From Escherichia coli (lineage in GTDB: Bacteria > Pseudomonadota > Gammaproteobacteria > Enterobacterales > Enterobacteriaceae): DNA of 64,000 nt. Under the pieces are notes generated by a model that had not been told where the DNA came from, made no database searches, and saw nothing but the letters and a program-made list of their open reading frames with translations. This document shows, one piece after another, positions 48,731 through 51,638 of this stretch; the first letter of the stretch is position 1, and each line of letters begins with the position of its first letter. The stretch lies in the NCBI RefSeq assembly GCF_003334815.1, contig NZ_QOWO01000005.1. One strand, 5' to 3'. Both the position numbers and the translations under genes were made by a program.

Positions 48731-49604
48731 GAACACACCTTTATCTTTTATCGCTGTTCAGTATGAGTGATTACCTGTCGATTCCTGAGCACACATAAGG
48801 GGTAACCATAAACATCAGCGATGCCATACGTATAACATCCCACATCACTATCAAGAAGATTATCTTTACCTCTGATGCTCGCTCAAAAACAGTTACGCTA
48901 AATACCTTAAAAAGGTAATCACAAGTCAAACTCAGGAGATAATCACGCAAGAATGCAATATTAAAATTCAGATACTCATTTTTGGTAATAAAGAAGTAGT
49001 TGGACTATTTCAATATTTATAATTTCCCACTACATACTGGCATCCATTCATGAGCAAAGGCGCATTATATGAATTTAACAATCCAGATCAACTGAAAATA
49101 CCTCTCCCTCATAAACACATAGCGTCAACATTCAATGACATAATGAGTAAAGATGTTGGTTATGCATACGTATCATTACTCTATGCCTGTCCCTTAAAAA
49201 CCCACTCATTAAGACTGAATCCATTCAGCAAATGATAACCAATATTATAGCAATGCCAATAAAAACAATATTTAAAACATTCAATAAAATATCACACACA
49301 GATAATTAAACCTTAAATAACAAATGGTTGCGTTAATTTCAGTTGATTTACGATACACATTTCTCATGAATAATGCGTCATTTCAAATGATCAGCAATAT
49401 TTACATTAAATAAGACTAAACTTATTGAACATTCGCAACAGCCCAAATGTAGGTTTTGGGCTGCAATAGTTCTTTTCTTTTTTATTATCTGTTGTCTGGT
49501 AATCATCAATAGATACTAAGGGCTTAACCGTATAGATATAACGTATCAAGAGGTAGGAGAAACAGCGCCATATGCAGACATGGCGCGGTTTTATGCAATA
49601 ACAA

Positions 49605-51638
49605 TCACGCGTCCGGGAACATCACGCTATGGCCCGGCGCTTCACGATGGAGATGAATAAAGTTAAGGTGCCGCTCGTACTGGTCAAGAATATCGGTGAT
49701 CACCTGCTCTTTGCTGTAGTCCATCAGGTCGTTGCCCTGGCTGCCTTCTAACAGGAAGGTTTCCAGCCGGTAGTAGGTCGATTTACCGCTGCGTGCGCGG
49801 TAGGTAAAGCCCGGCACCGAATATTGCTGCGGCCAAATCTGATAGACAAAGTTTTGCTCTTCGCCCATATGCACCAACAAATCCAGATGACCCAACTGCT
49901 GTCCCTCTTCCGGTGGCAGGCTTTTTAGCTCCACGTACGCGCCGCGCAACCGCAACTCCTGCGCCACTTCTTCCATTGCCGGGTAACAGACCGTCTCCAT
50001 CATCTGTTTAGTGTAACGCGTGCCCGGATAATTCATCAGGCGCGAGAGACGTTTTTTCCAGCTCAGGCGATCCTGAAGCCCCAGCGGTCGCGGTGCGGTA
50101 TCGCGGTTGGCACTTTCACGGCGGTAATCTTCTACCTTCAGAGATTTATACAACCCCGCCATCACGAAGAAGATCACAAAGCTGAACGGCAGCCCCATAA
50201 TCACCGTGGTGTTTTGCAGCGCGGATATCCCGTTAGTCATCAGCATGCCGAGCGTCAGCAGGCCAATCGCCACCGACCAGAAGACGCGCAGCCAGCCGGG
50301 GGCGTCGCTGTTGATATCTTTAAGCTGCGAGGTGAAATTCCCCAGCACCAGCGCCCCGGAGTCCGCCGAGGTCACATAAAACAGCAGGCCAGTAATGGTG
50401 GCGACGGAGGCGCTAAAGGTAAACGCCGGATACTGCGCCAGCAGGCTGTAGAAGCCGCGCTCCGGATGGACCATCGCTTCCTCGGCAAATGCCGCGCCGC
50501 CGTGGATGATTTCATACAGCGCGCTATTGCCGAACACCGAGAGCCATAACAGCGTGAAGGTAAACGGAATAATCAACGTGCCCAGCACGAACTGGCGAAT
50601 GGTACGCCCACGCGAGATACGCGCCAGGAACAAGCCGACAAACGGCGACCATGCCACCCACCATGCCCAGAAGAAGAGCGTCCAGTTATTCATCCACTCA
50701 ACCGGACGGTCGAAGGCAAAACTGTTGAGCGTCATGCCCATAAAGCGATTCACATAGTCGCCAACATTCAGCACCAGTGCATTAAGCAGGAACGAAGTGT
50801 CGCCCATAAACAATACGAACAGGATCAATCCCAGCGCCAGCGCGACATTAAGCTCCGATAACACGCGAATGCCCTTATCGACACCGGAGGTGACAGAGAT
50901 CGTGGCGATTATCACCGACAAGGCGATCAGTGCCGCTTTCGCCGCCATCGAATCGGGAATATCAAACAGTACGCTCAAGCCATAGTTAAGCTGCACCACA
51001 CCGATACCGAGCGTAGTGGCAATACCGAAGATAGTGCCGATCACCGCTGCAATATCCACTGAGTGACCTATCGGCCCGTTAATCCGTTTACCGAAGATCG
51101 GGTACAGCGCCGAGCGGATGGTGAGCGGCAAATTATAACGATAGCTAAAGTATCCGAGCGCCATGCCCATCAGCGCATACATCGACCAGCCGGTTAAGCC
51201 GTAGTGAAACAGCGTCCAGACCATCGCCTGACGCGCGGCCTCAATCGTCTGTCCCGCGCCTTCCGGCGGCTGCATATACTGCGTTACCGGTTCGGCTACG
51301 GAGAAGAACATCAGGTCGATACCGATCCCGGCAGCAAACAGCATCGCCGCCCAACTCAGCAGGCTGAATTCCGGTTTGGATTGTTCTGGCCCGAGCTTCA
51401 CCGAACCAAAACGCGAACAAGCGATACAGACCACAAAGACAATATAGAGCGTTGCCGCCAGCAGATAGTACCAACCGAAGGTTTTAGAAACCCAGTCCAG
51501 CGTGCGGCCAATCCACAGGGCCGAGAAGTCGCGAAACAGGATCGTTGTCAGGGAAAACAACAAAATCAGTCCGGCGGAGGTGTAAAACACCACCGGATTG
51601 ATTTTGTCCTTTTCCCTGCTGTGTGAAAGGTCTGTCAT
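49605..51638 (-). CDS. betT: High-affinity choline transporter (BCCT family)
   Basis: 677-aa polytopic membrane ORF MTDLSHSREKDKINPVVFYTSAGLILLFSLTTILF... Confidence 0.95.
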   Translation of the reverse strand: MTDLSHSREKDKINPVVFYTSAGLILLFSLTTILFRDFSALWIGRTLDWVSKTFGWYYLLAATLYIVFVVCIACSRFGSVKLGPEQSKPEFSLLSWAAMLFAAGIGIDLMFFSVAEPVTQYMQPPEGAGQTIEAARQAMVWTLFHYGLTGWSMYALMGMALGYFSYRYNLPLTIRSALYPIFGKRINGPIGHSVDIAAVIGTIFGIATTLGIGVVQLNYGLSVLFDIPDSMAAKAALIALSVIIATISVTSGVDKGIRVLSELNVALALGLILFVLFMGDTSFLLNALVLNVGDYVNRFMGMTLNSFAFDRPVEWMNNWTLFFWAWWVAWSPFVGLFLARISRGRTIRQFVLGTLIIPFTFTLLWLSVFGNSALYEIIHGGAAFAEEAMVHPERGFYSLLAQYPAFTFSASVATITGLLFYVTSADSGALVLGNFTSQLKDINSDAPGWLRVFWSVAIGLLTLGMLMTNGISALQNTTVIMGLPFSFVIFFVMAGLYKSLKVEDYRRESANRDTAPRPLGLQDRLSWKKRLSRLMNYPGTRYTKQMMETVCYPAMEEVAQELRLRGAYVELKSLPPEEGQQLGHLDLLVHMGEEQNFVYQIWPQQYSVPGFTYRARSGKSTYYRLETFLLEGSQGNDLMDYSKEQVITDILDQYERHLNFIHLHREAPGHSVMFPDA

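Follow-up and report, generated by a model that had tools for sequence, protein, structure and literature searches.

Long, AT-rich control regions that are silenced by H-NS, addressed by many regulators and activated by insertion sequences (IS) are found upstream of flhDC, bgl and csgD. The promoter region of pdeL (yahA) has reportedly been described as well, by Reinders et al. (J Bacteriol 2015/16) and by Rangarajan & Schnetz (2018). The spacer between pdeL and betT considered here lies in a window of 64,000 nucleotides, i.e. the whole stretch of Escherichia coli DNA that was analysed, and it is the same DNA as the pdeL promoter region of Reinders et al., with no sequence difference. It is like the flhDC, bgl and csgD regions in the length and AT-richness of the DNA, in H-NS silencing that is relieved by a specific activator and in recurrent IS insertions; it differs from them in that silencing is countered by PdeL, which the regulated gene itself encodes and which is responsive to c-di-GMP. 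We conclude that the spacer is very probably the transcriptional control region of pdeL, silenced by H-NS, activated by Cra and PdeL, provided with a long leader and holding the small gene yahV. As a feature it is real, ordinary and already known, a textbook case of a silenced promoter region with many inputs, and its elements are published and annotated. What is added here are the coordinates in the window, the pattern of conservation of each element and the position of yahV relative to the boxes.

A query of 1.1 kb around the spacer was 100% identical to many genomes of the K-12 lineage, and the window is thus E. coli K-12-like. The gene limits and the coordinates of the coding sequences (CDS) in the window were taken from the RefSeq annotation of a K-12 derivative that is 99.97% identical; for pdeL and betT they are also given by the list of open reading frames (ORFs). 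The genes concerned are as follows.

47642..48730, minus strand: pdeL CDS, LuxR-type helix-turn-helix domain and EAL c-di-GMP phosphodiesterase domain
49225..49299, minus strand: yahV (b4730), 24 codons with a GTG start, VCDILLNVLNIVFIGIAIILVIIC, RefSeq CDS WP_120795374.1
49605..51638, minus strand: betT CDS

An earlier note, made from the sequence alone, had described an unusually long, AT-rich and ORF-poor gap upstream of a pdeL ATG at 48730 on the minus strand. The ATG is confirmed by both the ORF list and RefSeq, and the length is indeed exceptional: with 874 bp (48731..49604) the spacer ranks first in length among the 53 positive inter-CDS gaps of the window. The median gap measures 101 bp, the two that follow the spacer in length measure 577 and 526 bp, and only 8 of the 53 exceed 250 bp, in line with the remark of the note that most gaps are shorter than that. 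The AT-richness is equally clear, with a GC content of 0.339 (33.9%) against 0.520 (52.0%) for the whole window. Just 0.15% of the 874-bp stretches that the window contains reach this AT-richness, and the lowest GC value among them (0.332, at 48668) belongs in effect to the spacer itself, which over several hundred bp has the AT content of H-NS-silenced regulatory DNA. The description as ORF-poor holds only loosely: we counted 11 ORFs with 24 codons or more, the annotated yahV included, against 7.9 +/- 2.2 in shuffled sequences, so that ORFs of the length of yahV are common in the spacer. Since yahV is annotated, the gap is moreover split into pieces of 494 bp and 305 bp. Converted to MG1655 (U00096.3) numbering by way of the yahV position in PMC6001520, the spacer corresponds to about 331,497-332,370.

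The regulatory elements were placed by mapping the oligonucleotides of Reinders et al. (bioRxiv 10.1101/2021.10.01.462762, supplement) on the window. The oligonucleotides for CIB (the PdeL box that is independent of Cra), the Cra box, CDB (the PdeL box that depends on Cra) and the promoter P1 agree with the window base for base, save for copying errors in the text of the oligonucleotide list. The lacZ fusion of the same authors (oligos 4398 and 4399) begins right behind the betT stop, at 49604, and ends within the first codons of pdeL, at 48703. The boxes are found at the following positions.

About 49406..49429, minus strand: CIB, overlapping an H-NS site, placed by the gel-shift oligos 4991 and 4997
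49409..49426, minus strand: CIB palindrome AATAAG-N6-CTTATT, unique in the window
49439..49373, minus strand: CIB gel-shift fragment (oligos 4991 and 4997), described as reaching 10 bp up and 33 bp down of CIB
49215..49229, minus strand: Cra (FruR) box GCTGAATGGATTCAG, scrambled by oligo 5030 (CB- mutant)
49201..49213, minus strand: CDB CTTAATGAGTGGG, placed by oligos 4695 and 5028

The best match to the Cra palindrome CTGAAWCGWTTCAG in the 64-kb window is CTGAATCCATTCAG at 49215..49228, with one mismatch, and the box is thus a palindrome of the kind that marks the Cra regulon. In gel shifts, H-NS is in competition with PdeL at the CIB site, and pdeL is derepressed in an hns mutant; Cra binds with a Kd of 49 nM, PdeL with a Kd of 76 nM at CDB and 573 nM at CIB, and scrambling of the boxes abolishes activity (bioRxiv 10.1101/2021.10.01.462762). 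Sites for Fis and IHF between the two PdeL boxes are cited in the same work. In vivo occupancy is documented by ChIP-seq, in which PdeL gives a peak at the promoter of its own gene (PMC8669472), and the spacer between betT and yahA is marked 'HNS' in a genomic SELEX table (PMC3946193). The suggestion that the spacer is an H-NS target therefore finds support in the literature, both in the derepression and competition data and in the SELEX mark.

The conservation of these elements was followed in three E. coli alleles, namely K-12, G3X16-2 and CFT073, of which the latter two are 96.7% and 94.4% identical to K-12 in the 1.1-kb query that takes in the spacer, and in Escherichia sp. E1V33, a member of a cryptic clade that was found by scanning one genome per species for the Cra-box and promoter pattern. 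E1V33 carries the K-12-type spacer, in which the DNA around the Cra box, the promoter and CIB is only 52-68% identical to K-12. The Cra box is kept at 15 of 15 positions in all alleles compared, CIB at 23 of 25 positions in E1V33, and the promoter at 39 of 41. Cra box, promoter and CIB are thus kept in E1V33, and CDB and yahV are not. The comparison with E1V33 gives independent support to the reading of the three former as elements that are probably under constraint. CDB, which adjoins the invariant Cra box, is weakly kept, with 9 of 13 positions in the B2 strain CFT073 and 6 of 13 in E1V33; this suggests that it may be specific to one allele, and since its conservation beyond the K-12-like allele is poor, the published switch may not hold in all strains. 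PdeL autoregulation may, by the same observation, vary between phylogroups.

A weak direct similarity was also observed within the spacer, between the CDB/Cra segment (49204..49246, CTCATTAAG...CAAATGATAACCAATATT) and a stretch just downstream of CIB (49362..49401, CTCATGAAT...CAAATGATCAGCAATATT). The likeness may be due to chance, or the latter stretch may be one more PdeL/Cra-like site in degenerate form. The local score of 17 is marginal (shuffles 11.0 +/- 1.7, maximum 19.5), and it is not claimed that the CDB/Cra segment was duplicated internally, near CIB.

Downstream of the boxes lie the promoter and the leader of pdeL, with the following parts.

49064..49091, minus strand: sigma-70 promoter TTGATC-16-TATAAT (pdeL 'P1' region), 10 of 12 consensus positions in a consensus scan
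49101..49092 and 49079..49071, minus strand: blocks changed in the 'P1' promoter mutant of Reinders et al., from the mutant oligo
49230..49052, minus strand: fragment used for RNA polymerase recruitment and gel shifts by Reinders et al., from oligo mapping
48731..49057, minus strand: putative pdeL 5' leader of about 325-335 nt, from the promoter position and the RNA polymerase fragment
48738..48741, minus strand: Shine-Dalgarno sequence AAGG, 7 nt before the pdeL ATG, by sequence inspection

The scan found 5 promoter-like sites where 4.3 were expected, and is therefore by itself no evidence for a promoter. The same hexamers and spacing, TTGATC-16-TATAAT, are listed for the yahA promoter in the RpoD genomic SELEX table (Shimada et al. 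2014, PMC3946193), and it is this sigma-70 arrangement that is kept in E1V33. The changes in the 'P1' mutant oligo flank TTGATC and TATAAT and leave the hexamers themselves untouched, so that transcription of pdeL could start ~8 nt further upstream. Judged from the position of the promoter, the pdeL leader would be ~325-335 nt long, and the centre of the Cra box would lie ~165 bp upstream of the start so placed, which seems far for direct activation. The leader is 97% identical to K-12 in CFT073 and 79% in E1V33; conservation in E1V33 is good over roughly the final 100 nt of it, and 14 of 15 positions of the ribosome-binding site region are kept there.

Two hairpins lie at the betT end of the spacer.

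49565..49586, minus strand: terminator-like hairpin, GCGCCATGTCTGCATATGGCGC then TGTTTCTCCT, 18 nt after the betT stop, from a terminator scan
49439..49463, no strand assigned: second hairpin with a 9-bp stem, CAGCCCAAA/TTTGGGCTG, by sequence inspection

The first combines a GC-rich hairpin with a T-rich tail and is kept in every haplotype. In E1V33 (locus L008, 5359..8400), the K-12-type spacer, including the homologue of this 'betT' hairpin, abuts lutB/ykgF-like genes, and the bet operon is absent; the hairpin at 49565..49586 is thus tied to the spacer and not to betT. The second hairpin is perfect in the K-12 allele only, with stem mismatches in G3X16, CFT073 and E1V33. It was kept as the betT end in the deletion oligo 16112. 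The T-rich tail that belongs to it is found on the plus strand, which is antisense to betT and pdeL, so that it may or may not act as a terminator.

Read from betT to pdeL on the minus strand, the control region thus consists of the betT hairpin, CIB with the H-NS site, yahV, the Cra box with CDB, ~110 bp of further DNA, the promoter, the putative leader and AAGG. In the published mechanism, H-NS coats the AT-rich DNA and silences pdeL; Cra on its box allows PdeL to bind CDB; and at low c-di-GMP, PdeL tetramers engage both CDB and CIB, displace H-NS and help to recruit RNA polymerase. The outcome of this displacement and recruitment is bistable autoregulation. A silenced promoter region with many factors and a long leader would explain why the spacer is long and AT-rich, with no missing gene. 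The negative outcome is useful in its own right, in the sense that neither a hidden gene nor a hidden RNA nor a mobile element is needed to explain the gap.

Among the other explanations, the one that survives best, unlikely as it is, takes yahV as the functional core of the spacer, that is, as a membrane peptide that is conserved and shares its regulation with pdeL or betT. The gene is not the unannotated small protein that the earlier note had envisaged, since it is already in RefSeq and its product was detected by immunoblot after SPA-tagging of the chromosomal ORF (VanOrsdel et al. 2018, PMC6001520); the 24-residue sequence and the order betT, yahV, pdeL are the same in that work and here. 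An open frame and this evidence of translation are what one would expect of a small membrane protein gene. The detectable tagged protein speaks for a functional core, as do a frame open at the same length in the three diverged E. coli alleles and a hydrophobic sequence that could form a transmembrane helix; a role in, for example, osmotic stress or motility has been proposed (PMC9976479). Against it, the K-12 and CFT073 sequences differ by eight nonsynonymous and no synonymous changes, and for all eight to be nonsynonymous the probability is 0.13 under neutrality (omega = 1), 0.005 with omega = 0.3 and 2e-5 with omega = 0.1. The E1V33 copy has lost its start (GTG to GTA) and contains in-frame stops. 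Purifying selection on yahV or conservation beyond the species was thus not found in these comparisons. The same reading is weakened by the lack of a counterpart in the quarter of E. coli that carries the ehaA-type locus described below, by the abundance of ORFs of this length in the spacer and by the fact that hydrophobic codons arise by default from T-rich DNA. As all K-12/CFT073 differences are nonsynonymous and the frame is broken in E1V33, yahV looks like an ORF within regulatory DNA that is translated, yet of recent origin and under weak constraint.

The position of yahV is of practical importance. It has its place between CIB and CDB, on the upstream side of the pdeL promoter and outside the leader, and its TGA stop is inside the Cra box; because of this overlap, knock-outs of yahV also disturb the regulation of pdeL unless they are carefully designed. 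The gene family of yahV (b4730) was reported to be specific to phylogroups A, B1 and C (PMC9976479). CFT073, a B2 strain, has an intact 24-codon yahV-like ORF without annotation (VSDILLIVLNIVFIVIVIMLAIYC), aligned to 49225..49299 with 7 of 24 residues changed, and thus differs from the range stated in that work.

Three further frames were considered. The 61-aa ORF on the plus strand (49050..49235) that the earlier note had singled out exists, and lies antisense to the promoter and the Cra region; it is not a gene, as its stop is lost in CFT073 and several in-frame stops interrupt it in E1V33. A 59-aa ORF in the leader was rejected as coding since its frame is broken in E1V33, and a 31-aa leader ORF was likewise rejected, being open in E1V33 merely because the stretch is near-invariant, with its GTG start lost.

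The site between betT and pdeL is occupied in two ways among complete E. coli genomes. The K-12-type spacer is present in about 3650-3664 of 5426 (~68%), and in 1399-1403 of them (~26%) the gene ehaA (3984 bp) lies between betT and pdeL. In the ehaA type, a segment of 4.6 kb (locus L004, 1358..6000) replaces positions 48745..49564 of the window (0.82 kb); homology between the haplotypes stops at 48744/48745, 14 bp upstream of the pdeL ATG, and resumes at the betT hairpin, at 49565. The locus of O157:H7-like strains, which encodes the EHEC autotransporter adhesin EhaA, sits at the same chromosomal site, from the betT hairpin to the pdeL ribosome-binding site. The haplotypes were compared by blastn and by scored pairwise alignment with shuffles, as a global MAFFT alignment misplaced the Cra box. 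A collinear module is common to both: they agree in 17 nt at the Cra box, and ~107-110 bp downstream follows the promoter, which reads TTGATT-16-TATAAT in the ehaA type and TTGATC-16-TATAAT in K-12. The shared module has an alignment score of 20.5, where shuffles give 4.7 +/- 2.2. A sensitive blastn search of the leader and upstream part of K-12 against the 4.6-kb ehaA segment revealed no similarity beyond the Cra box and the promoter. The O157:H7-like locus thus shares with the K-12 spacer a homologous Cra box and promoter at the same spacing, and differs from it in size (4.6 against 0.82 kb), in the absence of the CIB palindrome from ehaA-type loci and in having no counterpart of the yahV stretch. 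A hairpin with a 12-bp stem stands between ehaA and pdeL in this type, and pdeL has only 141 bp of upstream DNA of its own. Both haplotypes also occur in cryptic Escherichia clades, E. whittamii being of the ehaA type and E1V33 of the K-12 type, and the split is therefore old, with no recent deletion. No description of this dimorphism was found in the literature searched, a search that was itself incomplete.

The two haplotypes with their shared module are a matter of observation; what they mean for regulation is put forward more tentatively. The wider reading, to which we give slightly less than even confidence, is that the K-12-type spacer and the ehaA cassette are old alternative alleles at one site, built on one shared promoter module, with consequences for the control of pdeL and ehaA and with yahV as a proto-gene. 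The regulatory layout behind the bistable PdeL switch is, in any case, found in only the ~68% of complete E. coli genomes that have the K-12-type spacer. If the reading is true, the promoter, CIB and long leader would drive that switch in about two-thirds of E. coli, and the 'digital' c-di-GMP switch of K-12 would be limited to one haplotype. In the other, ehaA would be a Cra-controlled gene, with the homologous promoter in front of ehaA and pdeL placed behind ehaA and a strong hairpin. As a separate point, the small gene yahV would be a proto-gene that arose de novo within regulatory DNA. Apart from these genomes, a 5.1-kb contig assigned to a Collinsella sp. metagenome-assembled genome (JAIJJM010000200.1) matches the O157-type ehaA locus of E. 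coli at 97.7% identity, and very likely represents E. coli DNA that contaminates an actinobacterial metagenome bin.

The presence of ehaA at this site in ~26% of complete genomes, together with the collinear Cra-box and promoter module at equal spacing in both haplotypes, could also be read as the trace of gene loss, the spacer then being the remnant of a decayed or deleted ancestral gene, ehaA or another. This is highly improbable. A tblastn search with EhaA found no match in the K-12 spacer, even at E <= 10 and with the low-complexity filter off, and therefore the spacer is no ehaA remnant; the blastn similarity to the ehaA segment is limited to the Cra box and the promoter, so that the idea is largely refuted for ehaA. 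The occurrence of both haplotypes in cryptic clades, which makes the split an old one, and the lack of conservation of the 59-aa and 61-aa ORFs also speak against this reading.

The interpretation as a control region of pdeL includes a long leader, and the folding of that leader was considered as well. As a single sequence it folds with z = -1.03, and 12 of 100 shuffles fold at least equally well. In a consensus fold of four sequences, an upstream CCCCUU stretch can pair with the ribosome-binding site and the AUG; none of the 37 predicted pairs of that fold shows compensatory changes. By partition function, the probability of being unpaired from the Shine-Dalgarno sequence to the AUG is 0.43 in the native leader and 0.345 +/- 0.105 with shuffled upstream sequence, so the ribosome-binding site is not occluded to excess. 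Of the long regulated leader proposed in the earlier note, the length is thus retained, on the strength of the promoter position, and regulation by the leader itself is not evidenced by fold or occlusion. The small RNA proposed alongside it was not borne out, as an Rfam scan of 48300..50000 at a permissive E-value returned only a miRNA hit of 17.5 bits against a threshold of 60 bits. The least probable of the explanations is that of an unrecognised small RNA or a structured cis-acting leader (riboswitch, thermosensor) controlling pdeL after initiation, for which the length of the putative leader, its well-conserved end and the CCCCUU pairing can be cited, and against which stand the absence of an Rfam family, the ordinary fold energy, the lack of compensatory pairs and of excess occlusion, the absence of a promoter-plus-terminator pair bounding a small transcript and the poor conservation of the second hairpin.

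A mobile or phage origin of the spacer was rejected, given that no phage matched it and that no second copy of the leader was found elsewhere in E. coli genomes. The only plasmid matches are plasmids of 213-242 kb from K-12 laboratory strains, which are probably F-primes carrying this chromosomal region, and chromosome-sized records filed as plasmids. Mobile elements do enter the spacer. Strain C1 has two IS1 copies in it, strain 58-3 has an IS3-family element in the leader, and AR_451 carries IS1 at about 49173, adjoining a deletion that extends to lacY. The spacer is split or truncated in very roughly 100-150 genomes, as estimated from 147 more matched places than records. These insertions fit an AT-rich, silenced target. 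A further IS position in natural isolates corresponds to about 48817 of the window.
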